Below the pieces are notes generated by a model, which worked only from the letters and a program-made list of their open reading frames with translations, did no database searches and was not told the origin of the DNA. A stretch of DNA of 64,000 bases, from the IMG/VR virus record IMGVR_UViG_3300042894_003697. One strand, 5' to 3'. This DNA comes from an uncultured virus (IMG/VR IMGVR_UViG_3300042894_003697) (Duplodnaviria; Heunggongvirae; Uroviricota; Caudoviricetes). Position 1 is the first letter of the stretch. The number at the start of each line of letters is the position of its first letter. Positions 29,101 to 42,171 of the stretch are shown here, in pieces. The translations under genes and the position numbers were made by a program.

Positions 29101-29175
29101 TGGTGGAGGATGGGAGGATCGAACTCCCACTACATGCTTGCAAAGCACATGTGCTCCCATTATCACTAATCCCCC
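29101..29175 (-). tRNA. tRNA-Ala(TGC)
   Basis: Cloverleaf; G3·U70. Confidence 0.93.
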
Positions 29176-29183
29176 GAATATCA

Positions 29184-29260
29184 TGGTCGGAGTACAAGGA
29201 TTCGAACCTTGGACCTCATCGTCCCAAACGATGCGAACTACCGGGCTGTTCTACACTCCG
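29184..29260 (-). tRNA. tRNA-Pro(TGG)
   Basis: Cloverleaf; C1-G72, A73. Confidence 0.93.
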
Positions 29261-29265
29261 AAAAC

Positions 29266-29496
29266 TTACTTAATTTTTCTTGCTGAATCAAGACTGATTT
29301 CGCCTGTTTGAAATTCCAACAAGGCATTAACTATAGGATAGATATGTGCAGGATTTTCACTGGCACGATGCTGACGAGCAATTTCTCTTGCACGAGCCGA
29401 AGCCAGGATAACCAACATATATCTGTCACCGCCAGAATTTTTTACACAGAGTTCTGTGTCTATTTCGGTGCCACGGCTTAATTTCGAGCGATTCAT
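29266..29496 (-). CDS. rpoZ: RNA polymerase omega subunit-like protein
   Basis: GDRYMLVILASARAREI and PIVNALLEFQTGEI match the omega motifs (N)RFxLVxxAxxRARQ and K.xxxALxEIxxG; AAGGA SD. Confidence 0.75.
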   Translation of the reverse strand: MNRSKLSRGTEIDTELCVKNSGGDRYMLVILASARAREIARQHRASENPAHIYPIVNALLEFQTGEISLDSARKIK

Positions 29497-29513
29497 ATCT
29501 ATCCTTTAAAAAA

Positions 29514-29587
29514 TGGAGCGGGGTAACAGAATCGAACTGTCAGCATTAGCTTGGAAGGCTAAGGTATTACCACTATACGAACCCCGC
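29514..29587 (-). tRNA. tRNA-Gly(TCC)
   Basis: Cloverleaf; U73 and CCA. Confidence 0.93.
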
Positions 29588-29595
29588 AATTACAC

Positions 29596-29620
29596 TGGAG
29601 CGAATATGAGTTATATCCGC
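29596..29620 (-). pseudogene. tRNA-Gly remnant / 25-nt microhelix GCGGAUAU-AACUC-AUAUUCGC-UCCA
   Basis: tRNA positions 1-14 joined directly to 66-76. Confidence 0.7.
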
Positions 29621-29629
29621 TTTGATTGT

Positions 29630-29658
29630 ATTATACACTAACTTTGGTTACTTGTCAA
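29630..29658 (-). promoter_or_regulatory. Sigma70 consensus promoter for the second tRNA cluster
   Basis: TTGACA-17-TATAAT. Confidence 0.85.
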
Positions 29659-30438
29659 CTGGTGTCTGTTGCCAGTGGCTAAAACGGCATTTAATTTGCT
29701 CATATCGGCACAGGTGTACTTTTGATATGAATCTTTTAAGTTGTCAGGCATGGGAATGGTTCTGATCGGCACATTAAAACTTTTTGCCACATCCATAAAA
29801 CTCATGGTTTGTCCAGTGCCCAAATTCCATAGACCACTGGTTGTATTACATAAAAAATTCAAGTGTGTGCCAACTACTCTTGACACATGAACAAAGTCTC
29901 TTAGATAGTATTCACTACCTTCAAAAACTTCTATGTGTCCTTGTGTTTCTGCTTGACGTTTAAATTGCATAAATGGACTTGCTTGGTTGCCCTTGTGTTC
30001 TTCACCTTCGGGTCCGTACACATTGAAGTAACGGAAGCCTTGTACAATGCTTCCACTTGGATGATCACGCACATAACGTTCAAACAAGTATTTGCTCAAC
30101 GCATACGGGGTACGTGGATCAACAGGAGCGTCTTCTCTAAATGTACTGGTCAATCCGTAAACACTTGCACTGCTTGCATATTGGAAATTGACTCCATACG
30201 TTTTGCAAGCGTCATATAACTGGCGACTGAAATCAAAATTTTGTCGCATTAATTTATCAATGTCTCTTTCAGTGGTACTGCTGATAGCACCAATGTGAAT
30301 AACCCAATCCTGTTCCATTACACTGGGCAAATTTGTTTCGCCCCATTCATAAGTTGATACCGTGTGCCCAGCAGATTCTAATGCTGTCAACATGTGACTA
30401 CCAATAAAACCTTTGTGGCCGGTTAGTAATATTTTCAT
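29638..30438 (-). CDS. hldD: ADP-L-glycero-D-manno-heptose 6-epimerase-like protein
   Basis: TGHKGFIG, HIGAISSTTE, YASSASVYG, RYFNVYG…EHKG, YQKYTCAD. Confidence 0.85.
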   Translation of the reverse strand: MKILLTGHKGFIGSHMLTALESAGHTVSTYEWGETNLPSVMEQDWVIHIGAISSTTERDIDKLMRQNFDFSRQLYDACKTYGVNFQYASSASVYGLTSTFREDAPVDPRTPYALSKYLFERYVRDHPSGSIVQGFRYFNVYGPEGEEHKGNQASPFMQFKRQAETQGHIEVFEGSEYYLRDFVHVSRVVGTHLNFLCNTTSGLWNLGTGQTMSFMDVAKSFNVPIRTIPMPDNLKDSYQKYTCADMSKLNAVLATGNRHQLTSNQS

Positions 30439-30743
30439 TTAAAATATACTTCGCTATTTACAGCTTTATCATCGATCCAAATATCATAAACAGGTTTATA
30501 AAATATTAGCTTATGATATTTTGCTCCCCATTCTGTCATCTGCTTTTTAGTCAATTCTGATCTATCAACACCAGAAGCAGACCCTCTGGCTGTCCAATAA
30601 GTTATTTCATGTCCTTCATCAAACAACTTATTGATTTTTTCAATCCTATCTTTATGTGGCTGTGTTTTATCATAGTTTGCACTGCCATCATTGTTAAGAA
30701 CAATCGAACAAATTGTTCCATCAATATCTACAATGTATTTCAT
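30435..30743 (-). CDS. Small HAD-family phosphatase
   Basis: DIDGT, WTARG, KP…IDDK. Confidence 0.8.
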   Translation of the reverse strand: MKYIVDIDGTICSIVLNNDGSANYDKTQPHKDRIEKINKLFDEGHEITYWTARGSASGVDRSELTKKQMTEWGAKYHKLIFYKPVYDIWIDDKAVNSEVYFK

Positions 30744-31096
30744 AATTGACTATCGCCCGGCATAACTCTATAATTATCTTCTACTGAATCTGCTGTGCTT
30801 ACTTCAATAATGGTACCTGCTTCTAAACAAACTATTTGATGCGGCTCCAATGGCTGATTGCGCCACACATCACCCGAAGTTAAGATACTAGAGTCTTGAT
30901 GGGCGTCTTTGGTGTCAATGGTAATAACTTTGAATCGCCCATCTAATACATACCAGGTCTCATCTTTCTCTGCATGAAAGTGCATACTAAACTTGGCACC
31001 AGTATTAAACTTTAATAGTTTACCGCAGTACTTGTCATTGGTGGCCCAGATCAATTCAGAACCCCAACCTTTCTCTACAAATCCATCTAATCTCAT
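30740..31096 (-). CDS. Cupin-fold sugar isomerase-like protein
   Basis: KGWG.E, SMHFHAEKDETW, EVST…DNYR. Confidence 0.8.
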   Translation of the reverse strand: MRLDGFVEKGWGSELIWATNDKYCGKLLKFNTGAKFSMHFHAEKDETWYVLDGRFKVITIDTKDAHQDSSILTSGDVWRNQPLEPHQIVCLEAGTIIEVSTADSVEDNYRVMPGDSQL

Positions 31097-31857
31097 TTGA
31101 TTTCCTCTAATGTTGGCGCATAAACCCCAATATGTTGTACAGTGACCGCACTGGCATCAATTGCAAATTTAGTTGACTGTAGCAAATTTTTTGTATTGAC
31201 ATATTGATATGCAAATGCTGCAAGAAATGTATCTCCAGCACCTGTAACATCTGCAACTTCTACACCAGGTGCGGCACAGTCAATGTCATGATGTACTACT
31301 CTGGCACCTTTGCTTCCGCGAGTGACAATTAGTCCGCTGCACTCACTTTTGAGTTTACTATATTCAAGTTCATTGATCTTGACCCAAGCGCCTTGCAATC
31401 GTGCCAGGTCTGTTTTCTTGGTATCAATGAATACTGGACATTTAACTGTGGCAATAATTTGTTCCATTAGTTCGTAACTAATTGTGCCCTTGTCATAGTC
31501 ACTGATGACCACTGCATCATATGCATCAAGCATGTCTGTATCAAACATAACAGGAGTTGACTCAACGTCTTTGTCTATTCGAATAATCTGTTGCTTACTG
31601 CGCTCGTCGATAAGTCTAGTCTTGGTGCTGGTCTCACCAAATTGATAGTGTACATCACATCCTAGTGCTTCTAAGTTATTAAACACATTGCCAGCCATGC
31701 CATTGCGCTCTTCTGTACGAGTGGGAACAAATACAGGCACCGGAGCTTCTGGACTGAGACGATCTACAGTGCCATACTGATAGATATCCTTGCAGTTATC
31801 GCCTATTAGCAATATCTTGAATTGTGTTTGTTGTTGAATAATTGCCGACTCTGTCAT
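31093..31857 (-). CDS. PfkB-family heptose-7-phosphate kinase (RfaE/HldE domain I-like)
   Basis: RLSPEAPVPV, SDYDKG, DVTGAGDTF. Confidence 0.9.
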   Translation of the reverse strand: MTESAIIQQQTQFKILLIGDNCKDIYQYGTVDRLSPEAPVPVFVPTRTEERNGMAGNVFNNLEALGCDVHYQFGETSTKTRLIDERSKQQIIRIDKDVESTPVMFDTDMLDAYDAVVISDYDKGTISYELMEQIIATVKCPVFIDTKKTDLARLQGAWVKINELEYSKLKSECSGLIVTRGSKGARVVHHDIDCAAPGVEVADVTGAGDTFLAAFAYQYVNTKNLLQSTKFAIDASAVTVQHIGVYAPTLEEIK

Positions 31858-32197
31858 AAAATATCACTTGATTTACGTGTTCTTGTCCAACTATGCTTTT
31901 ACCTTGCCAGTCACTGCCTTTGACCATGATGTCTGGTTTGTCCAGTTTAATTAGTTCTATTAACTCTTCTGATGAATTAAAGATTTTAACATAGTCTACA
32001 CATTTTAAACTATTCAGCATAAACATACGATCTATTTGGTTGTTTATGGGTCGAGTAGATCCTTTGAGTTTTCGAACACGTTCGTCAGAGTCAATGCAAA
32101 CTAAAAGATAGTCGCCTTGGTTTTTTGCATACTGTAGCATTTCTAAATGTCCACGATGCAATATATCAAATGTTCCGTTTACTATTATTTTGGTCAT
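31796..32197 (-). CDS. Nucleotidyltransferase (RfaE/HldE domain II-like)
   Basis: NGTFDILHRGH, LKGSTRPIN, VKGSDW, YSTT. Confidence 0.9.
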   Translation of the reverse strand: MTKIIVNGTFDILHRGHLEMLQYAKNQGDYLLVCIDSDERVRKLKGSTRPINNQIDRMFMLNSLKCVDYVKIFNSSEELIELIKLDKPDIMVKGSDWQGKSIVGQEHVNQVIFYDRVGNYSTTNTIQDIANRR

Positions 32198-32203
32198 ACT
32201 ATT

Positions 32204-32280
32204 TGGCCTGACTGGAGGGATTTGAACCCCCGACCGACGGATTAGAAATCCGTTGCTCTATCCTACTGAGCTACAGTCAG
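32204..32280 (-). tRNA. tRNA-Arg(TCT)
   Basis: Cloverleaf; loop TTTCTAA. Confidence 0.93.
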
Positions 32281-32284
32281 AAAT

Positions 32285-32382
32285 TACCATATAAAAACAC
32301 ACTATAAAACACCCTGGTTGTTAAGTGTCACTACCGTCCCGGTACCACCCGGGGTAAGCGTGTAATGTGTTTTTATATGGTA
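32285..32382 (-). ncRNA. Hairpin RNA family, copy A (core CACAUUA/UAGUGUG)
   Basis: 20-bp inverted repeat 32285-32304/32363-32382; one G·U pair on the minus strand. Confidence 0.6.
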
Positions 32383-32453
32383 GGACGTATTGGATTTGAA
32401 CCAATGACCAATAGATTAAAAGTCTACTGCTCTACCAACTGAGCTAACGTCCC
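32378..32453 (-). tRNA. tRNA-Lys(TTT)
   Basis: Cloverleaf; loop CTTTTAA. Confidence 0.93.
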
Positions 32454-32494
32454 ACTGCTCTTTTCACTGTCCATTTGGACTCTCCTTACTTTAA

Positions 32495-32581
32495 AGCATA
32501 TTGAAACACACTAACTACCTTGGTATGTACTCAAGTTCATGGAACCGCTACGACCCTATCTTTAATGTGCTTCAATATGCT
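32495..32581 (-). ncRNA. Hairpin RNA family, copy B
   Basis: 20-bp inverted repeat 32495-32514/32562-32581; two G·U pairs on the minus strand. Confidence 0.6.
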
Positions 32582-32830
32582 CTGCATCCCCCGGCGGTAA
32601 TTATAGAGTATCAAGATATGACGCTATCATACCCATCACACACTCCTTCCACCCGCTTCCCGACAGGGACCGTTCTCGTATTGCTAACGCCGGTTAGGTT
32701 AGACCGCCGGTTACCCGGAAGCAGATTCACCATCCCCATTACTGGGGGCAGGCTCTTGCTCGAACCACCCGTACTTGTCACGTACTTCATCCTGTGGGTC
32801 ACAGTAGCCGACGACACTCGGCATGTTCTT
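32582..32830 (-). ncRNA. Unnamed GC-rich structured RNA
   Basis: Multiple hairpins, including two GUAA tetraloops on the minus strand; 8-bp long-range helix; lies inside the tRNA operon. Confidence 0.6.
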
Positions 32831-32906
32831 TGGCTCCTCGACCTGGGTTCGAACCAGGGACAACTTGATTAACAGTCAAGTGCTCTACCAACTGAGCTAT
32901 CAAGGA
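32831..32906 (-). tRNA. tRNA-Asn(GTT)
   Basis: Cloverleaf; U1-A72, G73. Confidence 0.93.
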
Positions 32907-32911
32907 ATAAA

Positions 32912-33110
32912 TTAGTTGTCTAGCTACTCTCACCACAAGAGCCCTAGACCGAGCAGTTACTCTGTCCACCTTTTTTTTTATTTAGACGGACAAGGTCCGC
33001 CTTTGTGATTTCTCAAGTCGCTTTCAATCAAGCCTTAGCGGTAGATCCAATGCACCGAGCTATTAAGGTGTTGCAATTACCTAACTCTTTTACGTTTAGT
33101 TAACACGGGA
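32912..33110 (-). ncRNA. Unnamed structured RNA
   Basis: Hairpins GGCGGAC/GUCCGUC, GUCUAG/CUAGAC and CUCU/AGAG; no credible ORF. Confidence 0.5.
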
Positions 33111-33112
33111 TT

Positions 33113-33188
33113 TGGTTGCAGAGGAGGGATTCGAACCCCCGACCTCCAGGTTATGAGCCTGGCCAGATACCACTTCTAACACTCTGCG
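33113..33188 (-). tRNA. Initiator-type tRNA-fMet(CAT)
   Basis: C1·A72 mismatch; loop CTCATAA. Confidence 0.9.
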
Positions 33189-33197
33189 ATAACTTAT

Positions 33198-33272
33198 TGG
33201 CAGGGGGTATAGGGATCGAACCTATGCATGACGGAATCAAAATCCGTTGTCTTACCTCTTGACGAACCCCCA
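33198..33272 (-). tRNA. tRNA-Gln(TTG)
   Basis: Cloverleaf; loop TTTTGAT; G73. Confidence 0.92.
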
Positions 33273-33278
33273 ACAACA

Positions 33279-33354
33279 TGGTACTCGGTACCAGATTCGA
33301 ACTGGTGTACTCACCGTGAAAGGGTGATGTCCTGGGCCTCTAGACGAACCGAGC
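33279..33354 (-). tRNA. tRNA-Glu(TTC)
   Basis: Cloverleaf; loop CTTTCAC. Confidence 0.92.
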
Positions 33355-33363
33355 AAACTATCT

Positions 33364-33438
33364 TGGCGGTCTCAAGGGGTAACGATCCCCTTCTTCAAGC
33401 GTGACAGGCTTGTGTGCGTCCGTGAACACTTTGAGACC
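33364..33438 (-). tRNA. tRNA-Asp(GTC) with atypical T-loop (ATCGTTA)
   Basis: Cloverleaf; loop CTGTCAC; GCCA. Confidence 0.88.
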
Positions 33439-33439
33439 A

Positions 33440-33593
33440 GTATCATTGTAAAGTGCTATCGTGCATAAATTTAGACGTAGGGTGCTTCCCTGTCAAAGCC
33501 GATGCAGTTATTTCAGGATCCGTTCCCGGCCAGTTGGACCCGAATAGTGTAAGCGTCCCTACACGATACCCTAATAGCACTTTACAATGATAC
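33440..33593 (-). ncRNA. Rod-like 154-nt structured RNA
   Basis: Perfect 20-bp terminal inverted repeat 33440-33459/33574-33593 plus nested helices. Confidence 0.6.
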
Positions 33594-33653
33594 CATTTGA
33601 TGGCATCAGATTTAAATTTTTAAAGAACACAGTTAATTTCTTAACATGTGTGT

Positions 33654-33682
33654 ATTATAGCAAACTATTGATTTTAAGTCAA
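33654..33682 (-). promoter_or_regulatory. Sigma70-type promoter for the third tRNA/ncRNA cluster
   Basis: TTGACT-17-TATAAT. Confidence 0.85.
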
Positions 33683-33727
33683 CTAATACCCGTGCTAGTT
33701 GTAAGGTTATTGGTGTCCTTACATCTA

Positions 33728-34168
33728 TTAGAGTACACTATACTCGTAATTTACAGTTTCGGTGTTTTCTCTAAAAACTACTGCACCATTTTTTAAATGA
33801 AATCGCCGGGCCATTTCTGTAGGCGGGCTCAGTGTAACGAATCTATTGATAGACTGATTAGTTTGACGTATGTGATTTACTGCATCAAAAATCAAACGAC
33901 GGCCAGCACCAGGTTCATAACTCCATATAGTGTAAAATATTGCAATAACTGGATCATGAGCAACTCGGAACAATTCGTTTTCAGAAATTGGTATACTGTC
34001 CTGATAGCTTACGCATGTGATTGCAGTAACTTTATCATTGCTATCTCTACCGACAAAAATATCGCGATTGACCCCTACTCTTTCATTGTGAGGAATAGAT
34101 GGACGTACTGGATCATGAGACAACAACTCAAAAAATTTGTCAGTAGTGGATTTAATTAGGTGTAGCAT
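33728..34168 (-). CDS. Hypothetical protein, possible GNAT-like fold
   Basis: FYTIWSY…GAGRRLI…TLSP…ARRFHLKNGA. Confidence 0.6.
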   Translation of the reverse strand: MLHLIKSTTDKFFELLSHDPVRPSIPHNERVGVNRDIFVGRDSNDKVTAITCVSYQDSIPISENELFRVAHDPVIAIFYTIWSYEPGAGRRLIFDAVNHIRQTNQSINRFVTLSPPTEMARRFHLKNGAVVFRENTETVNYEYSVL

Positions 34169-34231
34169 GGATTCTCTCTATTTACACAAGATTGCAAAAG
34201 TTATAAAAATTTCTAGTAGATCATTAAGACA

Positions 34232-34323
34232 TGGTAGCCCCGGCGGGAATCGAACCCACATGAACCAATTATCTGTTGCTTACGGGATATAAATCCGCCG
34301 TTTTACCATTAAACTACAGGGCC
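34232..34323 (-). tRNA. Atypical 92-nt tRNA-Ile(TAT)-like RNA with an extra arm
   Basis: Acceptor, D and T arms and ACCA are intact; the anticodon region is expanded. Confidence 0.7.
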
Positions 34324-34327
34324 AATG

Positions 34328-35098
34328 TTATAAATTTTTAAACGCTTTCTTTATAATTGCACTGCGATCCAGTTTAGAATTGGCACCCAGCACAATCACT
34401 GCATACTGTTGCGTGTTGTGTTCCACCAACATGGCTACACACCACCCGGCGGCCGTAGTAAATCCAGTCTTACTCACAGTCACACGGTCAAACTCTGCCA
34501 ACAGTTGTTGAGAAGTGTGGCTAAGATTCACAGTGTTGCTACGGGTTTGGTTTGACTTTTTTAGCAATACCGTGGGCTGACTGCTGACTTCTTGTATAAA
34601 CCAATAACCGGCAGCAATCTGCACCATCTCTGCCAGATCCTGTGCAGTGGTCACATTGAACACGCCTAACCCTGATGGATCTATGAATTTAGTATTTCGA
34701 AGATCCCACATTCTAGCATGCTGATTCATTTTGGCTATAAATGCAGATCGGCCCCCAGGATAGTCCTGTGAAATGGCTTCGGCTGCACCGTTGTCACTGC
34801 TGATCAACATGGCCTGCAACAACTGCTCTCTGGTATACTGGCCTGGCGGCAATCGACTACTGGTGTTTCTCCCCAGTGTTATCGGCTGTTGTAAATCTCT
34901 ATTGTAATCCAATGTCACCATGGCAGTCATCAGCTTGGTCACACTGGCCATGGATCGCACCTGATCCACATGACGACTCAGTTCCGTGCGTTGTGCATTG
35001 ATGTTGTAGACCAACACTGTGGGCTCACTGGTGCGAGCTGTGGCATTGGTCAACACTGCACAAAAAAACACAGTAGCAAATAATTTCATATTCTTCAA
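34328..35098 (-). CDS. D-alanyl-D-alanine peptidase, family S11 (PBP7/DacA-like)
   Basis: Signal peptide; SVTK (SxxK), SDN, KTG. Confidence 0.9.
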   Translation of the reverse strand: MKNMKLFATVFFCAVLTNATARTSEPTVLVYNINAQRTELSRHVDQVRSMASVTKLMTAMVTLDYNRDLQQPITLGRNTSSRLPPGQYTREQLLQAMLISSDNGAAEAISQDYPGGRSAFIAKMNQHARMWDLRNTKFIDPSGLGVFNVTTAQDLAEMVQIAAGYWFIQEVSSQPTVLLKKSNQTRSNTVNLSHTSQQLLAEFDRVTVSKTGFTTAAGWCVAMLVEHNTQQYAVIVLGANSKLDRSAIIKKAFKNL

Positions 35099-35155
35099 TT
35101 TGTAAAAATTGTAGCAGGTGATTTACCCACACGTAACACATTGTTTCCAATGTGT

Positions 35156-35232
35156 GTATCGAAGCACACTAGCCACTCTGTTTCTTCTGTATGCCTACAG
35201 ATTGTATTCATTTGTCTAATGTGCTTCGATAC
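35156..35232 (-). ncRNA. Hairpin RNA family, copy C
   Basis: 17-bp inverted repeat 35156-35172/35216-35232 with the same U·G pair. Confidence 0.6.
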
Positions 35233-35340
35233 GATCTAATTTTTAGTCTCACACAAGAGATTCCATCCTAGTCGCCGCCCGTTTGTGCTTGTTTATAGTG
35301 TAGCACAGGACCTCGTTTCCTGTCAACACTTTAAGAAGAT

Positions 35341-35502
35341 CTATGCTAAAAGCTGATTCTTGACTCGTCTGCGATTTTCGGATTCTATCCGAGCACGTTC
35401 CAATTTGTCTTGTATCAACTGATTCAGCTGATCCGCAGTCAGAGTATGCTCTGTGGTAAACCTTACTTCGCGCATTCTTTGTTTTAAATCTGATTTCTTC
35501 AT
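35341..35502 (-). CDS. 53-aa basic/helical hypothetical protein (MKKSDLKQRM…)
   Basis: AAGGA SD directly after the terminator U-tract. Confidence 0.65.
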   Translation of the reverse strand: MKKSDLKQRMREVRFTTEHTLTADQLNQLIQDKLERARIESENRRRVKNQLLA

Positions 35503-35514
35503 TTTTTCCTTGCT

Positions 35515-35600
35515 AAAAACAAAAACCCTAGGGTTTTTAATCCTAGGGTCCTTGGAGTTTGTGAACACTGTGGTATTACACTGTGTCTTCCTGGACCCTA
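35515..35600 (-). promoter_or_regulatory. Putative attenuator (terminator/antiterminator)
   Basis: Terminator GACCCUAGG/CCUAGGGUU + UUUGUUUUU; competing 8-bp helix UAGGGUCC (35593-35600)/GGACCCUA (35544-35551). Confidence 0.7.
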
Positions 35601-35704
35601 TCAATCTCTAATGTATCACTATTCGCACCAAACAGTGACCAGCAGGCTATTGACCCTGTTTCAGGCTGAACATTGATTGTGTGATAATAGTGATGAGTAT
35701 TCAT
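35576..35704 (-). CDS. Putative 42-aa leader peptide MNTHHYYHTINVQPETGSIACWSLFGANSDTLEIDRVQEDTV
   Basis: Starts just below TTGACT-17-TGCAAT (35715-35743); its 3' codons overlap the antiterminator strand. Confidence 0.65.
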   Translation of the reverse strand: MNTHHYYHTINVQPETGSIACWSLFGANSDTLEIDRVQEDTV

Positions 35705-35734
35705 TGCAGTTGTTATTGCACGTTATTTATGATT

Positions 35735-36751
35735 TTAAGTCAACCACTTTAACTTTACTTCTAGTTCTGTTTTTACCTTTGTGGATTGCTGGTTCAAAAT
35801 TTGTTGAGTATTTTTAAAAAAAATATTAGTGGTCAACAGATCTAAATTTGCTTGGAGTCTATGTTTGTTATTGTATACAAATCGTTGAACTGTGTCAAAG
35901 TCTTTGAGTAAGTTGAGATTTTTTTCTATGGCATAATAGCAACGATCCCATGGATCCGGCATATCCTGATAGCTGTGATCCACAATGTCATCAAACACAT
36001 CAAATCCTTGACCACGCAGATAATCTGCTATGCGCCATCCGCCTACCCAGATAGGAACTGTGCCGCCATAGATAGCCATGATAGTTTTTTCTGTTATGAT
36101 AGTTTCGCGTTCAAAAAATGCCGGCTCTGTGATTAAACTAACACATGTGGGTTCAAATACAGCTTGTTGTAAGAATCTTTGATAAACTTCTGGATTAGTT
36201 ATTGAACCATACTGTAGTCCTTGATCGAGTAATTTTTCAGTTCCAAACAGGTACTGCCTTGGTGTAGTGGTAATCTTACTAGATAAAATAATTTTTTGAT
36301 AGGCAATGTTATTAGTTTCACGCATCATTGCATTTTTATCAATATCAGTATGCTTCCAGCAGAGTGTATATTCACAATCATGAAGATCAAACATGTCTAC
36401 CAGCATTAACATAAAAGTTCTATGAAGCCGTATCTTATTAATTATAAAATTAAATGTTTGGTATTTGTGACTCCAATCTGGAATAATTTGTTGTTGTATA
36501 AATTGGTTAGTGTATTTTGCCATCAGCACAGGCAAACATACTAAATTATAATCTTTTAGCATGTCATCGTGTTGTAGCACATGATCAAATACTATGGTAT
36601 GTGCATGTGGATTTGTGCTATTTTCTAACAATCTTTTCACAGGAAATTCATGCAGTTCTTCATTGTAATGATGATCCTCTACAAAAATTGTTTCTGGCTC
36701 AGTGAGCTGTTCTCCGGTATACCTATACTCGGGTCCTGACAATTCAATCAT
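35735..36751 (-). CDS. Putative glycosyltransferase-like protein (TEKT family)
   Basis: SLITEP…ITEKT…GFDVFDDIVDHSY. Confidence 0.55.
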   Translation of the reverse strand: MIELSGPEYRYTGEQLTEPETIFVEDHHYNEELHEFPVKRLLENSTNPHAHTIVFDHVLQHDDMLKDYNLVCLPVLMAKYTNQFIQQQIIPDWSHKYQTFNFIINKIRLHRTFMLMLVDMFDLHDCEYTLCWKHTDIDKNAMMRETNNIAYQKIILSSKITTTPRQYLFGTEKLLDQGLQYGSITNPEVYQRFLQQAVFEPTCVSLITEPAFFERETIITEKTIMAIYGGTVPIWVGGWRIADYLRGQGFDVFDDIVDHSYQDMPDPWDRCYYAIEKNLNLLKDFDTVQRFVYNNKHRLQANLDLLTTNIFFKNTQQILNQQSTKVKTELEVKLKWLT

Positions 36752-37701
36752 AATTGTTTGATTTTTTCTAAAACCGCATTGAACTTTTCAGGCCATGTTG
36801 ATGCAAAATGTTTTAACAGTTGTTGATTGTGGCTAGCTGCCTGATCAAATCTTGCATAGTCTTGTTCTGTGTAAACTTTATCAATAAAAGTTTCCAGTTG
36901 ATTTAAAATAACCAAATGACGACTTTTATTTTCTGTAATTTCATCATAACCGTGATCCACATAATCGGATAGTACATCAAATCCATACTGTTTTAAACAA
37001 CCCACTGCTCCGGGACTACAGTACAGCAACCACGGTCTAGGCAATTGCAATGCACGAAATATTTTTTCACTGAACGCAATATGACTCTGACTAATGAATG
37101 TTTCTAATATCAAACTTACGTTTGAATCAATAATACATTGTTCAAGAGCACCGTGAGATTCTACAGTATTATAAGGCACAAGTTCTAGTCCCTGGTCATG
37201 TTCGCGCCAATAATCATAAAACTCAGCCTGTTCGTATTGGTCCATATATTCGGATTGACTACAATTAAAACTAACAAGTCCGTCGTTTAAGATATTTCTT
37301 CGTATCAATTCGTAAAATGTTATGGACCTATCGCCGCGAATACGATTCATAAAACAATTAAATCCACGGGTAGTTGGCCGATTTAGATACACAGGATTAA
37401 ATTGCCAAATTGACCAAAATTCTGGCAACACACTAACAACATCTCCCGGAAGTGATTGCAAAAATATATTGTCAGTGATAATTATATCCGATTCCATTTG
37501 ATCTATAATATCAACCAATCTGCAATTCAGTGTCAAATCCTGTCGATTGTAGATGTATGGATAGCCGTAATTATTTGTGTATGGATCGAGTGGTGCTTTG
37601 GTAGGAGTAAATCCTTGTGCTTGTATTGTTTGACTCAATACTTTGACAATTTCATTTTCTCTGGGAGATGATATCCAAATTTGATCTTGATGAGTTTTCA
37701 T
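36748..37701 (-). CDS. Putative glycosyltransferase-like protein (TEKT family)
   Basis: LILET…FSEKIFRAL…GFDVL…VDHGYD. Confidence 0.55.
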   Translation of the reverse strand: MKTHQDQIWISSPRENEIVKVLSQTIQAQGFTPTKAPLDPYTNNYGYPYIYNRQDLTLNCRLVDIIDQMESDIIITDNIFLQSLPGDVVSVLPEFWSIWQFNPVYLNRPTTRGFNCFMNRIRGDRSITFYELIRRNILNDGLVSFNCSQSEYMDQYEQAEFYDYWREHDQGLELVPYNTVESHGALEQCIIDSNVSLILETFISQSHIAFSEKIFRALQLPRPWLLYCSPGAVGCLKQYGFDVLSDYVDHGYDEITENKSRHLVILNQLETFIDKVYTEQDYARFDQAASHNQQLLKHFASTWPEKFNAVLEKIKQL

Positions 37702-38413
37702 GCTAATTACTTATATGTACTGGAATTACCCTACTATAGAAATTGTCTACCCATCTGATCGTGATCCTGTTCGAGAAAGTTTACATGACAAAACTCACTG
37801 TATATTTTATAATCCAACAGTAGATAAAAATAAAATTAAATCAAACCAGAGTCTTGAAGATTTATGCCAATGGGCAAACCAAAAAATAAATCAACAAAGT
37901 ATATCAGGATTTTTAACAGACACACAAAATCATTATGAAATTGCCAATTTGGTCAAGCTCAACTTATGGGTAGATGATTTGCCACGTCGTGGCAGTATCA
38001 AACCCATGTTATTGCAGTATATAGGAAATGAAAAATACGAATCTGGCACAGGCGAAACTAGACTCAGAGCACTGGAAAGAATTGCCAGTATGTCAACTGT
38101 TCATGCATTTATCTGTACACATCGAAAATACGCAGATCAATTTGATCATTTAGAATCAATCACAACATTTGTAAGATTTGCAGAGTTGTGTCAGGCAGAG
38201 GTAGGACAGAAATTTTTATTTAGACTGACCGATGCAGATGCACTGTATGGACTAATTTGGTATGAATACAACAGCTCACGCACTGTTCATACAACTCCAA
38301 GTGAAGACTATTGTGTGTCTGCGATTACAAATTATTTAAAAGAATACCCCGACACAGTGTTTACACCTGCATGGTTTGATACTTTGGTCAACTGGGACGA
38401 TTATAAAAACTAG
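37700..38413 (+). CDS. Hypothetical protein
   Basis: 237-aa divergent ORF. Confidence 0.7.
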   Translation: MLITYMYWNYPTIEIVYPSDRDPVRESLHDKTHCIFYNPTVDKNKIKSNQSLEDLCQWANQKINQQSISGFLTDTQNHYEIANLVKLNLWVDDLPRRGSIKPMLLQYIGNEKYESGTGETRLRALERIASMSTVHAFICTHRKYADQFDHLESITTFVRFAELCQAEVGQKFLFRLTDADALYGLIWYEYNSSRTVHTTPSEDYCVSAITNYLKEYPDTVFTPAWFDTLVNWDDYKN

Positions 38414-39869
38414 CCTGCACTATTGCTTTCCAATCTTGAGCTCGATTGCCAGTTGGCATAACGTCGACTCCTAGCCAAGGCAAACTGTCATTGCAATGCC
38501 CAGTAAATCCTTTCTTGGGCAAGATTAAATCGTCATTCCATCTTTCTAAGAATAATCTTCTTATTAACGGTTTTGATTCAACTCCAACTTTAAAATCATA
38601 TGGTAAATTCAATGCAAATTGCATCACTGGTTTGGCCAAAAATGGATTACGAGTTTCTATGCCCCATGCACCAGCTATGGCATCAATGCCTTGAGCATCA
38701 CATCCTACTATCTGGTGCCAATAGTCCATTAACAATGTAGCTTGCCCTGTGTGACCTTGATACACGGACCGGCATTGATCCCACAAATCTTGATGGCCAT
38801 TCTGGCTATACGGGCTGTGGGAACAATCGGCATAATGCATGGTTTTATAAATGTCATATCCACCAAACAATTCATCGGCTCCTACCCCGGTGAATAACAC
38901 ACGTTGTTGACAATGTTGACTTATGATCCATTGTCCAACAAAACTCCAACTTTGCACCGGCATCTGTAGCCGATCAATCAAGTTTAAAAAATATTCAGCC
39001 CACTGTGATTCGTCGATTGACAATTCGTGCAATTGACATTGTTCTTTAGGTGTTAAAAACTCTTGTATGCGATCAACAATAAGGTCTTTGCCTGTGTTGT
39101 TAACAGTGTAAAGCTCAAGGCCGGGAATAGAATTCAATATGATACTAGAATCTAACCCGCCTGAGTAAGTCAATGCAGCCGGGCAAGCAGGAATCATTGC
39201 GCTGGTAGAATACTTCCAAATAAATTTAAATTCTTCGTAGGCCTGATCAATGTTGTTGTATTGTTTGGGCTGCACCCAAGACCAAACACTGTCAATTTCT
39301 CTGACTGGGCGCCCGTCTTGATATAACTGACCTGGGATTATTCTACTGATACCACGCCAGGGTGTATCAAACAACATGCACCAATGTTTTGTTTGGTATG
39401 TTTGTGATATTTTTTCTGCTCTTATATAGGTCAATATTGGTGCAACTTCACTGCAAACAATTAAAATGTTGTCATCCTGATACTGGTATAAACAGCGTTC
39501 GCCCTGCGGGTCAGACGCATACAACACAGTCTTGGTGTCAGTCCATGCCCATGCCCATGGTCCCCAGCCTTGAGTCAATTGATCTATATTGTTTTCTACA
39601 CTTTCATGTATGAACTCTATGTCATTTTCGTAACTACCTAACTCTCGGTAATTGTAAATTTCACCGTTGTAGGCCAAAAAATTATCATGGCTGTGTTTAT
39701 AATATTCATCTGTGCCAGTTATATGCAAAACAGTTTGACCAATGAATATATTATTTTCGTATTGGAAGCGATCAAAGTCTGGTCCACGAGACTGTAATAT
39801 CCTGAAGGCAGATAAATGTTTATCTAATGAAATTTCTGTTTGACTTTTTACCAGTAGTATACCACACAT
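38388..39869 (-). CDS. Asparagine synthetase-like glutamine amidotransferase
   Basis: N-terminal MCGI, RGPD, YNGEIYN, SGGLDSS, GVGADELFGGY, E.R.PFL. Confidence 0.9.
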   Translation of the reverse strand: MCGILLVKSQTEISLDKHLSAFRILQSRGPDFDRFQYENNIFIGQTVLHITGTDEYYKHSHDNFLAYNGEIYNYRELGSYENDIEFIHESVENNIDQLTQGWGPWAWAWTDTKTVLYASDPQGERCLYQYQDDNILIVCSEVAPILTYIRAEKISQTYQTKHWCMLFDTPWRGISRIIPGQLYQDGRPVREIDSVWSWVQPKQYNNIDQAYEEFKFIWKYSTSAMIPACPAALTYSGGLDSSIILNSIPGLELYTVNNTGKDLIVDRIQEFLTPKEQCQLHELSIDESQWAEYFLNLIDRLQMPVQSWSFVGQWIISQHCQQRVLFTGVGADELFGGYDIYKTMHYADCSHSPYSQNGHQDLWDQCRSVYQGHTGQATLLMDYWHQIVGCDAQGIDAIAGAWGIETRNPFLAKPVMQFALNLPYDFKVGVESKPLIRRLFLERWNDDLILPKKGFTGHCNDSLPWLGVDVMPTGNRAQDWKAIVQASFYNRPS

Positions 39870-39886
39870 AGGCTAATACTTACCAA

Positions 39887-39912
39887 TAAAAAAAGGCCCT
39901 AGGGCCTTTTTT
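39887..39912. terminator. Bidirectional intrinsic terminator
   Basis: A-run-GGCCC-TA-GGGCC-T-run. Confidence 0.8.
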
Positions 39913-39930
39913 AAATTGTGCTGGTATGTA

Positions 39931-40830
39931 TTATACTACAACTGGGGTATAGTCAATACCTGTTGTTGCCAACCCAACCAACCCAATTGTTGTTTCAAAT
40001 GCTGCCAACTCACTGGCAGCAACCAGTACATCGGCTTGACTCAAATTGCTGGCGGTCATCCATGCTGTGTAGTCAGTGACCTGTGTCAATGTAGCATTGG
40101 TACCGTAAACATTTTTATAAACATTCTTGATGAATGTTTCATTGCTGACACCACCTGCGTCTGCTTTGTAAACATCAGTGGCTAACAATGCTGTTGCTAA
40201 TTCTTTGTTTGTCCAACCTTTATCAGCAAGACTGATACCAATGCCTGTGTAGGCTTTGGTAACATCAGCAACTCCAAGTGCAGCTGCTAACAATGCGTAT
40301 ACATCACCTGCCCGCCCTGCAGCATCATAAGCAATAGCTTTGTCGGTGAACACAACACGCTCGTGACTGGCCAAGTTAAATGCCACATTGGTTGCCAGTG
40401 TGCTACCAGCAGTGATTTTGTCTGCAGTCTTGGTCACTGTGTAATCAGTGCTGGCACCATTGATGCTGAATGTGTCGATACCGGCAGTACCAGTTACATC
40501 AATTTGAATATCCACAACACCGTCGCCAGAAAGACCAGCGCCAACTGCACCAAAGGTAGCAATTTTACCACCTGCGCCAACTGTGGCCACAGTTAAGATT
40601 AAATTGTTGGCAACAGTGCCACCAAGTCCTGTGCCCAGCAGTGTGATGGTATCGCCTGCCACATAGCCAGTGCCTGCACTTGCTACGGCTGCATCTAATA
40701 TAACGGAATAAACTCCGTCGGTTTTGGTTACATCAAATTTAGCTCCAGTGCCTGCACCGCTTGTTGTACCAGTTTTATCTTGGTAAGTGGCATTGATTGC
40801 TTTGTCTTTGATTGTGATTGTAGTTGTCAT
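39931..40830 (-). CDS. Ala/Gly/Thr-rich surface or S-layer-like protein with DUF4214-like C-terminus
   Basis: GTGYVAGDTITL beta-rich N-terminus; ERVVFTDKAIAYD…SNETFIKNVYKNVYG…VGLATTGIDY; AAGGA SD. Confidence 0.6.
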   Translation of the reverse strand: MTTTITIKDKAINATYQDKTGTTSGAGTGAKFDVTKTDGVYSVILDAAVASAGTGYVAGDTITLLGTGLGGTVANNLILTVATVGAGGKIATFGAVGAGLSGDGVVDIQIDVTGTAGIDTFSINGASTDYTVTKTADKITAGSTLATNVAFNLASHERVVFTDKAIAYDAAGRAGDVYALLAAALGVADVTKAYTGIGISLADKGWTNKELATALLATDVYKADAGGVSNETFIKNVYKNVYGTNATLTQVTDYTAWMTASNLSQADVLVAASELAAFETTIGLVGLATTGIDYTPVVV

Positions 40831-40957
40831 ATTGTTCCTTTTAATGTAATATTTAACAAATAATTTGTCTATCCAATAATTATACACAAGATTACCAACA
40901 CTACGTGTGCGTGTACGCACATGTTTTGACACGAAATGTTAGAAATTTGTCCAAAAG

Positions 40958-40980
40958 AAAAGCACCCGAAGGTGCTTTCT
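40958..40980 (-). terminator. Terminator after tmRNA
   Basis: AAAGCACC-UUCG-GGUGCUUUU. Confidence 0.85.
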
Positions 40981-41377
40981 GTTATTTTCTGTTACGAGGT
41001 ATAACTACCCTAAGCAGTGTTTAGACTGCTAAAGATTCCTTGGCTGTACGAGCTGAGAACTTGACGTTCTTACCACTTACAGTTACGGTTGTATTTGCTT
41101 TTGCATTTACTTTTTTTGCTTCTACAACCGGGTTACCCCTGTCCTACGGCTTCTGCATTGCCGAGCTGTCCACTAATTTACTTGTTGCCCTGTCGAATCT
41201 AGGTCAGGCCCATCAAAAAGACTTTTTATAATCCAAAACATATAGTTGACTACAACTAAGATGCCCCACATATAAACCCAATGCCAATTCTCAAACATAA
41301 AAATCCTTTTGGTGGACCTGGGGGGATTCGCACCCCCGTCCAGAACACTTTTCTCTTTGCTTCATACAGCAATAACT
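40981..41377 (-). ncRNA. ssrA: Circularly permuted (two-piece) tmRNA
   Basis: The piece ending CAGGUCCACCA (41310) precedes GGGCCUGACCUAGAUUCGAC (starts 41211); G3·U70; tag frame AKANTTVTVSGKNVKFSARTAKESLAV*. Confidence 0.9.
41173..41298 (-). CDS. 41-aa hydrophobic peptide starting in the tmRNA intervening segment
   Basis: AAAGGA SD 5 nt before ATG; MFENWHWVYMWGILVVVNYMFWIIKSLFDGPDLDSTGQQVN. Confidence 0.5.
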   Translation of the reverse strand: MFENWHWVYMWGILVVVNYMFWIIKSLFDGPDLDSTGQQVN

Positions 41378-41427
41378 TGTATTTAATCAATCTACGCTTT
41401 TGTAAATTCAATTTTTATTTGTAAGAG

Positions 41428-42171
41428 TTATCCTGTTAAAACTTCACACCCATTTTTGGTAACAAGAATAGTATGTTCATATTGAGCACTATATCCACCA
41501 TCACGGGTTATAGCGGTCCAACCATCTTCTAATAGTTTTACTTTGTGTCCTCGCTCATTTATCATTGGTTCTATAGTGAATATCATTCCTTCTTTCATTA
41601 ATGAAGAATCGTTATTTTTGTAGTGTAAGATTTGAGGGACAGTATGGAATTCTTTACCAATACCATGTCCACAAAAATCTCTCACAACACTAAAGCCTGC
41701 ATTAGAAGCCGTTTCTTCTATAACTTTACCTATTTTGTTAAAGGGAACACCGTCCTTTACAATCTTTATCGCATTTTCTAAACAGTCGTATGTTGTTTTA
41801 CACAAGAATTTGTGCCGAGGATGAACTTCACCAATCATAAACATTTTACTAGTATCACCAAAAAAATAAGACCCATCTATCAACTTTTTTACGGTTACAT
41901 CTATGTTTAAGATATCTCCGTTCTTTAATGGTGTATTGTTTGGTATGCCATGGCAGACTACATTATTTACGCTGGCGCAGATTGATTTTGGAAACCCTTC
42001 ATAGTTTAATTGGGCACTTTCTGCATTGAGAACATTTATAGTATAATTCTCACACAAATCATTAAGAGAGTTAGTAGTTACCCCTGCTACAACAAATGCT
42101 GAAATGTAATCCAATAATTGTTTTGCTAGATTACATACCAAACGCATATTGCTTATATCTTGGTTAGTCAA
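41428..42171 (-). CDS. map: Methionine aminopeptidase type I
   Basis: FPKSICASVNNVVCHGIP, NIDVT, GDTS, CGHGIG…FH, FTIEPMIN, SAQYEHT. Confidence 0.97.
   Translation of the reverse strand: MTNQDISNMRLVCNLAKQLLDYISAFVVAGVTTNSLNDLCENYTINVLNAESAQLNYEGFPKSICASVNNVVCHGIPNNTPLKNGDILNIDVTVKKLIDGSYFFGDTSKMFMIGEVHPRHKFLCKTTYDCLENAIKIVKDGVPFNKIGKVIEETASNAGFSVVRDFCGHGIGKEFHTVPQILHYKNNDSSLMKEGMIFTIEPMINERGHKVKLLEDGWTAITRDGGYSAQYEHTILVTKNGCEVLTG

Follow-up and report, generated by a model that had tools for sequence, protein, structure and literature searches.

Leader-peptide attenuation in enterobacteria, in amino-acid operons (trp, his, pheA, thr, leu, ilv) as well as in pheST, relies on a short ORF near the promoter and on an intrinsic terminator whose 5' arm is shared with an antiterminator. 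A ribosome at the leader stop codon masks the antiterminator strand. Ribosome-mediated attenuators of the antibiotic-resistance-gene type were reportedly covered by a Term-seq survey. According to the accessible part of one report, vmlR of B. subtilis has a ribosome-mediated attenuator that senses translation inhibition ahead of an antibiotic-resistance gene (PMC9226507). The Sinorhizobium trpL attenuator gives rise to the trans-acting products rnTrpL and peTrpL, as described in the available sections of two papers (PMC6614838, PMC7298713). In Pseudomonas phages, premature termination makes short 5'UTR RNAs, and the screen, as far as the available text of that study describes it, discarded candidates having ORFs behind a Shine-Dalgarno sequence (PMC10914365).

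Here we analysed a 64,000-nucleotide stretch of DNA (the window) from an uncultured virus of the Caudoviricetes (IMGVR_UViG_3300042894_003697), in which a short ORF and a terminator precede a tRNA region. The parts of the module and their geometry, the maintenance of the ORF, the covariation of the competing helix, the predicted folding order and the gene order lead us to consider it probable that the module is a ribosome-dependent transcription attenuator heading the phage tRNA/tmRNA region. No description of such an element was found in open-access papers and preprints.

Organization of the module in the window

The features of the module and its downstream region are listed in Table 1. The promoter, the 42-codon ORF and the terminator were all found on the minus strand where the original prediction had placed them. 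The leader promoter indeed has 14 bases, TTGACTTAAAATCA, in common with the promoter at 33682. The consensus promoter scan did not list the leader promoter because position 2 of its -10 hexamer is G, and this copy, without the key A, may be transcribed weakly from its own promoter. The ATG lies 10 nt past the -10 hexamer, resulting in a near-leaderless mRNA. The terminator hairpin (-19.1 kcal/mol, z -3.3; 0 of 200 shuffles as good) is followed by the U-tract UUUUUGUUUUU, whose last base is 35515.

Table 1 Coordinates of the leader module and the region downstream of it in the window
Feature	Position	Strand	Details
-35 hexamer TTGACT	35738..35743	minus	inside last codons of upstream 338-aa gene
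-10 hexamer TGCAAT	35715..35720	minus	atypical G at position 2; 17-nt spacer from -35
Leader ORF, 42 codons + TAA	35576..35704	minus	ATG at 35704, TAA 35578-35576
Predicted long-range helix within ORF	35615..35695	minus	MFE fold
Antiterminator 5' strand UAGGGUCC-A-GGA	35589..35600	minus	codons 35-39
Antiterminator 3' strand UCC-AA-GGACCCUA	35544..35556	minus	common to terminator 5' arm
Intrinsic terminator	35515..35554	minus	13-bp hairpin 35554-35520, 9-nt loop AUUAAAAAC
53-aa gene	35341..35502	minus	AAGGA ribosome-binding site; start 13 nt past U-tract
Structured RNA	35105..35335	minus	between 53-aa gene and tRNA region
First downstream tRNA genes	32204..34323	minus	Ile(tat), Asp, Glu, Gln, Met, Asn, Lys, Arg

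The terminator 5' arm had been proposed to pair alternatively with the ORF through a perfect 8-bp helix. The complementarity between UAGGGUCC (35600-35593, codons 35-38) and GGACCCUA (35551-35544) is exact, but the helix is longer than 8 bp, as GGA (35591-35589) and UCC (35556-35554) extend it beyond a small internal loop. The 5' strand ends 10-11 nt ahead of the stop codon. The best duplex in the window reaches -18.0 kcal/mol vs -11.9 kcal/mol in shuffles (z -2.2; 2% of 50 shuffles match it). As judged from these sequence comparisons, the window duplex taken alone is only moderately unusual, and its significance comes from conservation in relatives.

The MFE fold also contains a predicted long-range helix within the ORF, in which CAUCACUAUU (35695-35686) pairs with GAAUAGUGAU (35624-35615), joining codons 4-7 with codons 27-30. 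Both strands are kept in the closest relative (L008), and little or no covariation accompanies this predicted helix. The ORF-internal helix of class A modules is formed by UGGU..GCGAUU with GAUCGC..ACCA, and the antiterminator strand is not involved in it.

Between the U-tract and the 53-aa gene the gap holds no promoter. The protein model of the 53-aa product is a two-helix hairpin (pLDDT 93), for which no Pfam family, no usable Atlas match and no Foldseek match to the PDB were obtained; against PDB sequences nothing was better than E = 0.9. The structured RNA carries the motif AAGUG..GGAAACGAGGUCC..AACGGGCGG.. and folds with -71.2 kcal/mol (z -5.4). It appears in 48 matches listed from related downstream flanks, where its stems co-change by eye, and no Rfam family matched it. 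In the window, most of the tRNA genes are separated from the module by an S11 peptidase gene, a 146-aa gene and promoter-like sites (35326 and 33682), and these tRNAs need not depend on read-through.

Conservation of the module in related viruses

Scans with the terminator pattern gave 74 and 94 viral loci, corresponding to 138 distinct stretches. A short ORF was present in 117 of these, which form the comparison set for most counts; removal of one belonging to an unrelated gene family (L201) left 116 modules. The comparative scan therefore comprises 116 distinct module versions, on viral contigs that reach 357 kb, grouped into 38 clusters at 70% nucleotide identity, and the helix-pairing statistics are based on an alignment of 103 rows. 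The terminator, the mutually exclusive antiterminator and the overlapping short ORF are conserved over the 116 versions and the competing helix covaries, in agreement with the predicted attenuator logic. Loss of the upstream ORF or of the helix in relatives, which would have counted against the prediction, was not seen.

Each of the five genomes that are 93-100% complete has one module, which heads the tRNA/tmRNA region. The downstream side was examined in three genomes, and all three carry same-strand tRNA genes there; one of them has 21 tRNAs and a tmRNA inside 9.4 kb. In two modules (L148, L166), a tRNA-Gly gene begins 7-18 nt past the terminator. The downstream unit had been proposed from the window only, and the gene order in relatives agrees with it, as the module is followed there by the 53-aa gene, a structured RNA and tRNA genes.

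Promoter-like sites of the TTGACN type were identified in 112 of the 117 modules, with a 17-nt spacer in 111 of the 112. The criterion for a sigma-70-type promoter was hexamers 17 nt apart and a -10 hexamer whose second base is A and whose sixth is T. The -10 hexamer is TATAAT in 61 and TACAAT in 46 of the 112 sites; TACAAT is also that of L008, and TGCAAT occurs solely in the window. The distance from the -10 hexamer to the ATG is 11 nt or less at 59 of the 112 promoters.

Searches of the phage database with the module region (blastn) and with the neighbouring 338-aa protein (tblastn) gave no match. The closest cultured relatives according to the flap-endonuclease gene are PA5oct (54%) and an Erwinia Eneladusvirus (48%). 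The covariance model R1 did not find the module in PA5oct, where it hit just a plain terminator after a 66-aa gene (E = 0.017), or in an Erwinia jumbo phage, where there were zero matches. Rfam searches returned no family besides tRNA and tmRNA in 28000-42000 (E <= 1), and only chance-level rows, with no leader, riboswitch or T-box family, in 35050-35760 (E <= 10).

Pairing and covariation of the antiterminator helix

Between the ORF and the terminator 5' arm, the strongest duplex has a median energy of -19.7 kcal/mol in class A and -16.1 kcal/mol in class B, vs about -10.9 and -10.0 kcal/mol, respectively, for shuffles. At most 2% of shuffles match the duplex in 99 of the 117 modules, and more than 2% do so in the remaining 18. 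The upstream antiterminator strand ends between -21 and +7 relative to the stop codon in 116/117 modules, which places it within the reach of a terminating ribosome, and several class B versions form helices of 11-12 bp crossing the stop codon.

Over the 103 rows, 85.0% of the cells in the core helix columns are paired vs 79.8 +/- 0.5% in shuffles, a level reached by 0 of 500, and sliding the partner lowers the pairing to 58.6% or less. The 12 counted pairs of the terminator are 97.6% paired over the same rows. Two pairs of the antiterminator vary in a compensatory manner: pair 43-106 is CG in 59 rows, UA in 25, UG in 5, GC in 3, AU in 1 and other in 7, and pair 42-107 is CG in 67, UA in 12, UG in 4 and other in 17. 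A Fisher test (table 59,2 / 5,25) gives p = 3e-15 by rows with kinship ignored; counted by 70% clusters, the pair types are CG in 15, UA in 12, UG in 2, GC in 2, AU in 1 and CA in 1. At the same arm positions the partner within the terminator is U whether the arm carries G or A. The C/U switch on the ORF side is therefore specific to the antiterminator, because the terminator partner U accepts either base.

When the RNA was cut ahead of the terminator 3' arm, the antiterminator was part of the MFE structure in 58/59 class A and 44/54 class B modules (102/113). Consensus folding of truncated class A RNAs recovered the same helix. Consensus folding of full-length leaders gave the terminator only, so that truncation was needed to reveal the antiterminator. 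No helix sequestering the antiterminator strand, equivalent to the 1:2 helix of known attenuators, was found in the leader folds, and for this reason read-through, not termination, is predicted for a leader without translation.

Maintenance and codon content of the leader ORF

An ORF of at least 30 codons that ends 15-40 nt ahead of the terminator is present in 115/117 modules vs 4.9% of shuffles, and the remaining two frames contain 341 and 406 stop codons across the family. In variants whose peptides end in RV, GS, PGS or LGF, the GGGUYC motif and the position of the stop codon are kept while the frames are shifted. The third codon positions are no freer than the first or second, the leader codons evolving like structured RNA, and selection on the leader peptide at the protein level was rejected on this ground. 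Translation of the ORF is thus inferred from ORF maintenance alone. The 42-aa peptide had no match in Pfam or PHROG. A 4-nt Shine-Dalgarno core precedes 5 of 53 leadered ORFs vs 74 of the 81 small-protein genes downstream. Many of the leaders listed end, as judged by eye, in a purine-rich GAGA(A) run.

The peptides diverge widely between lineages and have little in common besides Trp, whose codon is nearly invariant: of 54 cluster representatives, 52 have it at least once and 44 have it exactly once. The Trp codon is single, and none of the leader ORFs has a run of regulatory codons for one amino acid.

The window peptide was described as unusually diverse, and it does use 19 amino-acid types (no Lys) and 31 codon types, including all three Ile codons, AGG and TTA, with NAY codons at 7 of the first 11 positions. 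The idea that this diversity serves to detect the loss of almost any tRNA did not hold up, as the peptide of L008 has Lys and the lineages differ widely. The suggested sensing of queuosine modification fared no better: NAY makes up 23.1% of the first 12 codons in frame vs 20.5% and 20.9% out of frame. The NAY codons track the A-rich, G-poor 5' end, and their reading as a sensor of Q modification was rejected. The His/Tyr codon run of the window is predicted to pair with codons 27-30. A feedback based on the tRNAs encoded in the window was likewise rejected, since the codons they read account for 23 of 41 in the leader vs 55% across 36 large ORFs (p = 0.88, binomial test).

A proposed model of ribosome-dependent attenuation

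We suggest that the module would act as follows. A sigma-70-type promoter would produce an RNA opening with an ORF of 32-50 codons, either leaderless or behind a leader mostly without the 4-nt Shine-Dalgarno core. The last ORF codons would serve as the antiterminator 5' strand, and the terminator 5' arm as its 3' strand. A ribosome keeping pace with RNA polymerase up to the stop codon would mask the 5' strand, so that the terminator folds and the transcript ends at about 190 nt. With a late, stalled or missing ribosome, the antiterminator would form first, and the polymerase would go on to transcribe the 53-aa gene, then the structured RNA and the tRNAs. In this model, translation would be the switch signal, presumably as overall translation capacity and not as one amino acid, and read-through would extend to the tRNA genes.

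More tentatively, and with considerable doubt, the module may be a homeostat of translation capacity. It would gauge how far the ribosome lags behind RNA polymerase on a test ORF at the 5' end, open the tRNA/tmRNA region, the small protein and the structured RNA only when host translation lags, and shut on recovery. The lag could come from a shortage of ribosomes or tRNAs, from starvation or from a tRNA-cleaving defence.

Alternative explanations

A real switch could also be set by a trans-acting factor rather than by the ribosome, with the ORF having another role. Such a factor might come from the host, might be a small ligand or might be an RNA-binding protein, possibly the 53-aa protein exerting feedback. 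The nucleotide-level constraint over the entire leader, third codon positions included, would fit such a factor, as would the missing Shine-Dalgarno core of most leadered ORFs and the conservation of the terminator loop and flanks well past termination needs, with a 30-nt core matching exactly in 74 viral contigs. Moreover, a homologous gene of 45-62 aa starts no more than 35 nt past the terminator in 82 of the 117 modules. However, the 35 modules in which this gene is missing still keep the switch, and Rfam gave no riboswitch or T-box match. A trans-acting factor also leaves unexplained the open frame in nearly all modules, the antiterminator strand within ribosome reach in 116/117 and the ATG at the transcript start in 59/112. 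We regard this explanation as unlikely.

The module might instead be a stand-alone early peptide gene and/or a regulatory small RNA whose terminator is partly leaky, and the alternative helix would act in RNA stability, processing or the peptide's own translation. It has its own near-consensus promoter and terminator, the product would be about 190 nt long, and the Trp residue is nearly invariant. Precedents, as given in the available parts of the sources, are the short abundant premature-termination RNAs from phage 5'UTRs (PMC10914365) and the trans-acting attenuator RNAs and leader peptides of Sinorhizobium (PMC6614838, PMC7298713). Against this stand the otherwise dissimilar peptides and the competing helix, which corresponds exactly to the terminator 5' arm and covaries with it. 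Furthermore, the next gene or RNA begins 7-35 nt past the U-tract and needs read-through, because this gap holds no promoter. A role in trans would also be compatible with attenuation, and as a full account the stand-alone reading seems improbable to us.

A chance arrangement, with an ordinary terminator of the 338-aa gene and then a spurious ORF, could draw on the moderately unusual window duplex and on the promoter that fails the consensus scan, but it is contradicted by the 116 conserved versions with covariation and by modules lying away from the 338-aa gene family (L025-L034, some 2 kb upstream of a family member and in the other orientation), and we consider it extremely improbable.

Implications and comparison with known systems

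The reason for the tRNA sets of large phages and the moment of their use are open questions. If the module is indeed a switch sensing translation, the phage would express its tRNAs on condition of translational stress, and the question of timing would become testable. Leader-ORF attenuation would also be extended to phages, to leaderless mRNAs and to a cargo of RNA genes. Should the homeostat interpretation be true, no attenuator acting on tRNA supply would have been known before it, nor any leader-ORF attenuator in a phage. The 116 natural variants provide a ready mutational series for both helices.

Like the Pseudomonas phage units, as these are portrayed in the available part of the study (PMC10914365), the module has a promoter-adjacent terminator, and its transcript would be short or, after read-through, long; no mechanism is given in that part for the Pseudomonas phage units. 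As with Sinorhizobium trpL in the portions of the papers at hand (PMC6614838, PMC7298713), the terminated leader could have a function of its own, as a small RNA or as a peptide. Its structure is strong, and a strong promoter would make it abundant. Unlike the trpL leader, it has no tandem Trp codons. The module resembles the vmlR type, as far as the accessible text presents it (PMC9226507), in combining a leader ORF with a terminator and antiterminator and, as we infer here, in responding to general ribosome stalling rather than to one amino acid. Those attenuators are bacterial and control resistance factors, whereas the phage module heads a tRNA/tmRNA region.

With the enterobacterial attenuators, the phage module has in common the short ORF, the terminator, the antiterminator sharing an arm with it and the masking geometry at the stop codon. 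It differs from them in that the leader lacks a codon run for one amino acid, no equivalent of the 1:2 helix was detected in it and it matches no Rfam leader family. Furthermore, the module is phage-borne, its leader ORF is often leaderless, and its cargo consists of RNA genes (tRNAs and the structured RNA) together with the 53-aa protein.

Architecture of the proposed attenuator module in the window

The window carries one copy of the module, in which a promoter, a short leader ORF, and an intrinsic terminator follow one another, with tRNA genes downstream on the same strand. The terminator hairpin (-19.1 kcal/mol, z -3.3) was matched in stability by none of 200 shuffles, and it is absent from the terminator scan only because the loop limit of the scan is 8 nt. 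The 3' end of the ORF can pair with the terminator 5' arm to form a competing helix, the antiterminator. The 8-bp exact complementarity proposed for this helix was confirmed, and the helix is in fact longer, as GGA pairs with UCC over a small internal loop. In the fold of the 196-nt leader, the terminator is in the minimum free energy (MFE) structure and the competing helix in the centroid; these and all other structures given here are predicted. The codon statistics described earlier for the ORF were correct, as was the 14-base identity of the module promoter with the promoter at 33682. The latter is a promoter-like TTGACT-17-TATAAT site, and a 4-codon ORF (ATG TTA AGA AAT TAA) lies 6 nt past it, about 200 nt ahead of tRNA-Asp. 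The window promoter is unlisted by the consensus scan because its -10 hexamer carries G at position 2, and judged from this sequence it may be weak.

Features of the module and its surroundings in the window
Feature	Position	Strand	Remarks
Tandem paralogous 317-366 aa genes	35735-37701	minus	two copies
-35 hexamer TTGACT	35743-35738	minus	338-aa gene (upstream neighbor) ends within TTGACT
-10 hexamer TGCAAT	35720-35715	minus	17 nt past -35
Leader ORF, 42 codons	ATG 35704, TAA 35578-35576	minus	ATG 10 nt past -10
Trp codon 22, TGG	35641-35639	minus
Competing helix, 5' strand UAGGGUCC	35600-35593	minus	exact complement of GGACCCUA
Competing helix, 3' strand GGACCCUA	35551-35544	minus
Terminator hairpin, 13 bp, 9-nt loop	35554-35520	minus	from folding; followed by tail UUUUUGUUUUU
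53-aa gene	35341-35502	minus	start 13 nt past U-tract; AAGGA site ahead
Structured RNA	35105-35335	minus	-71.2 kcal/mol, z -5.4; also at L231:640-800 and about 45 further loci
tRNA-Ile(TAT)	34232-34323	minus	92 nt
Promoter-like TTGACT-17-TATAAT	33654-33682	minus	14 bases in common with module promoter
Permuted-type phage tmRNA	40930-41402	minus	RF04321, 102 bits; also at L232:8922-9411

A family of related modules in viral metagenomes

No record matching the module region was found in the cultured-phage collection, and the matches were viral metagenome contigs. Forty-seven related loci were reached via the neighboring 338-aa protein. In L008, where this protein is 80% identical, the module is 79% identical, its ORF also has 42 codons, and the -10 hexamer is TACAAT. 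Three loci (L003, L017, and L037) carry a shorter module of 32-35 codons with TTGACA-17-TATAAT and the ATG 7 nt past the -10. Identity in L025-L034 is 94% over the terminator and the beginning of the 53-aa gene, the 338-aa relatives are just 48-50% identical, and the module lies at another place and on the opposite strand relative to them. In some lineages, paralogous genes of 317-366 aa stand in tandem ahead of the module (three copies in L003:3042-6084); no Pfam or PHROG family matches them.

Searches with two terminator patterns, which define class A and class B modules, yielded 74 and 94 viral loci, from which came 138 distinct stretches having 250 nt or more of upstream sequence. An ATG ORF of 18-61 codons ends shortly ahead of the terminator in 117 of them; the remainder comprise 20 terminators behind unrelated genes of 62-88 aa and one without an ORF. 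The 117 modules form 54 clusters at 80% and 38 at 70% nucleotide identity. As the set was gathered via terminator patterns, variation of the terminator core is under-sampled in it, and the arms of class A hardly vary, by construction. One member (L201, 55 aa, starting MYQVNPAAN) belongs to an unrelated gene family and was counted because it falls below the 61-codon limit; it is the sole outlier in every later test, and without it 116 modules remain. Terminators nearly identical to these also stand at the ends of two unrelated families of small genes, one of 88 aa (starting MLQTLLQT) and one of 62-63 aa (starting MYQVNPAAN), in L130, L134, L138, L141, and 16 further class B matches, so this hairpin type is reused in these genomes.

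Transcript starts

A TTGACN-17-TAnAAT-type site precedes the ORF in 112 of 117 modules, with a 17-nt spacer in 111; its -10 hexamer is TATAAT in 61, TACAAT in 46, and TGCAAT in the window alone. The ATG lies at most 11 nt past the -10 in 59 modules (5-8 nt in 37), whose RNAs are leaderless or nearly so, and 21-66 nt past it in 53 leadered modules. The leadered examples printed show, by eye and uncounted, an apparent 5' hairpin and then an A-rich segment closed by a run of purines. A 4-nt Shine-Dalgarno core precedes 5 of 53 leadered ORFs, compared with 74 of 81 downstream small-protein genes. The 5' hairpin of leadered class A versions (L072 and others) lies between the -10 and the leader ATG and varies in sequence by version. 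The leader ORF of the L072 group comes after two mini-ORFs: ATG CGC TGA, where the transcript starts, and ATG TAA, preceded by AAGGTG.

The leader ORF is retained as a frame

As the original prediction required, the leader ORF is retained in relatives: 115 of 117 stretches have an ORF of at least 30 codons ending 15-40 nt ahead of the terminator, compared with 4.9% of dinucleotide shuffles. The other two frames contain 341 and 406 stop codons across the 117 stretches. The peptide ends vary (RV, GS, PGS, and LGF) while the nucleotides GGGUYC and the stop position stay fixed, indicating compensation of local shifts in frame. One class B group has a 1-nt indel through which a TGA, 4 nt upstream, replaces TAG as the stop; TTCAGGGCATTGAATAG is retained there. 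Codon evolution of the protein-gene type was not seen in the ORF; third codon positions are as fixed as first and second ones, and the codons GAT CGC ACA CCA GAG hardly vary, even at their third positions. With the open frame kept and third positions fixed, the frame matters and most of the sequence constraint is on the RNA.

The leader peptides share little apart from one nearly invariant Trp. At least one Trp codon occurs in 52 of 54 cluster representatives and exactly one in 44, with varying neighbors; in class A it is predicted to pair with CCA, and no covariation is found there. Sensing of tRNA loss or of queuosine loss had been proposed from the codon content of the window ORF, and these codon arguments are not supported. 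The enrichment of queuosine-type NAY codons follows from base composition at the 5' end (39% A, 10% G), and the NAY run in the window also reflects a predicted helix of codons 4-7 with codons 27-30. Neither the lack of Lys nor the codon variety is conserved among the relatives' peptides, and leader codons read by the 17 tRNAs of the window are not enriched.

The competing helix is conserved and covaries

For each module, the best duplex that the terminator 5' arm, extended by 6 nt, forms with the ORF and spacer was compared with 50 shuffles. Median duplex energies are -19.7 kcal/mol in class A and -16.1 kcal/mol in class B, versus -10.9 and -10.0 kcal/mol in shuffles. Equally good shuffles amount to at most 2% in 99 of 117 modules, leaving 18 weaker cases, and to at most 10% in 112. 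Relative to the first stop-codon base, the median span of the upstream strand is -24 to -9 for class A modules and -14 to +2 for those of class B, and its end falls within -21 to +7 in 116 of 117 modules. The class A helix pairs AGGGUCC-N-GGAG with CUYC-AA-GGACCCU. The class B helix often passes through the stop codon, as in L154 (GGGUCUUAGAU with AUCUAAGACCC) and L178 (12 bp).

Conservation and covariation of this helix in relatives agree with the original prediction. In alignment A4 (103 distinct stretches, eight core pairs), 85.0% of core pairs are paired, compared with 79.8 +/- 0.5 in shuffles (0 of 500 as high) and at most 58.6% with the partner slid; 54 cells are changed on both sides, compared with 22.8 +/- 3.3 in shuffles. 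Two arm positions pair with U in the terminator, which can accommodate G or A at both (G-U or A-U), and the ORF base in the competing helix switches together with them. Pair 43-106 is CG in 59, UA in 25, UG in 5, GC in 3, AU in 1, and other in 7; pair 42-107 is CG in 67, UA in 12, UG in 4, and other in 17. Fisher tests of C/U against G/A gave p = 3e-15 and 2e-10, respectively, with shared descent not fully corrected. With one vote per 70% cluster, the pair types are CG 15, UA 12, UG 2, GC 2, AU 1, and CA 1, indicating many independent lineages of each type.

Across 74 viral contigs (L054-L127), there is almost no base change in the terminator stem, in its loop AUUAAAAAC, or in the ACAAACUYCAAGG flank, while the leader ORF falls below 70% identity. 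By sequence comparison, conservation of the terminator region exceeds the need of termination alone, and the region may be a binding site.

Folding order and a model for attenuation

When the RNA is cut just ahead of the terminator 3' arm, the competing helix is in the MFE structure of 58 of 59 class A and 44 of 54 class B leaders. Consensus folding of class A leaders cut in this way also recovered it, together with an intra-ORF helix (UGGU..GCGAUU with GAUCGC..ACCA) showing little covariation. In the MFE of the full leader, the competing helix is retained in 51 of 59 class A and 20 of 54 class B versions, and the terminator wins in 8 and 31, respectively, the window being one of the cases in which it wins. 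The naked RNA is thus predicted to read through, and masking of the last ORF codons to tip the balance towards the terminator.

The predicted anatomy of the module is that of ribosome-dependent attenuation. A ribosome at the stop codon would sit on the antiterminator 5' strand, and the terminator 5' arm, starting about 20 nt farther downstream, would then be free to pair with the 3' arm. With the ribosome late, stalled upstream, or absent, the antiterminator 5' strand would be left free and would pair first, since it is transcribed first. No helix sequestering this strand (a 1:2 equivalent) was found among the predicted folds, and an untranslated leader should therefore read through. We infer that the signal would be translation keeping pace with transcription, rather than one amino acid.

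Downstream genes and genomic setting

A 45-62 aa homolog of the 53-aa product starts at most 35 nt past the terminator in 82 of 117 modules, and tRNA genes lie within about 420 nt in 41. K33 and R36 are invariant in this family; the 53-aa protein is modeled as a two-helix hairpin (pLDDT 93), and nothing matched it in Pfam, in PHROG, among PDB sequences, or by Foldseek. The structured RNA, with no Rfam match, lies between the attenuator or the 53-aa gene and the tRNA genes, usually 3' of the small gene (GGAAACGAGGUCC ... AACGGGCGG ..., present in 48 printed matches). It has conserved single-stranded motifs (GGAAACGAGGUCC, AACGGGCGG, GAUGG, and UAUUAAAGCA), and its stems vary in step by eye. A TTGACA inside it in the window (35326) is not conserved in related flanks. 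In some relatives, the structured RNA or a tRNA gene directly follows the terminator (in L148 and L166, a tRNA-Gly gene 7-18 nt past it). The tRNA-Ile(TAT) of the window is unusually long for its type, and L068 likewise has a long tRNA-Ile (90 nt) behind its module.

A covariance model of the module found exactly one copy in each of five genomes of 320-357 kb (93-100% complete). All three genomes examined downstream of the module have tRNA genes on the same strand, one of them with 21 tRNAs and a tmRNA within 9.4 kb. The tmRNA closes the module-headed tRNA array in a complete 347-kb relative; its position in the window is upstream of the module. The only match among 185,579 species genomes was L231, a 6.2-kb contig with the module, binned with a Polynucleobacter genome, and a match to the betaproteobacterial tmRNA family RF01850 scored 79.8 bits, near the gathering score of 84; this contig and the near-threshold match offer a hint, and only that, of the host.

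Relation to known systems

In Pseudomonas phages, premature termination yields short 5'UTR RNAs, by a mechanism left unstated in the relevant portion of the source (PMC10914365). The module has no match among Rfam leader, T-box, and riboswitch families, and neither a phage leader-ORF attenuator nor an attenuator ahead of tRNA genes was found in full-text searches of open-access papers and preprints. The leaders of amino-acid operons are among the closest known kinds. Stalling-sensing attenuators of resistance genes are also among the closest (PMC9226507).
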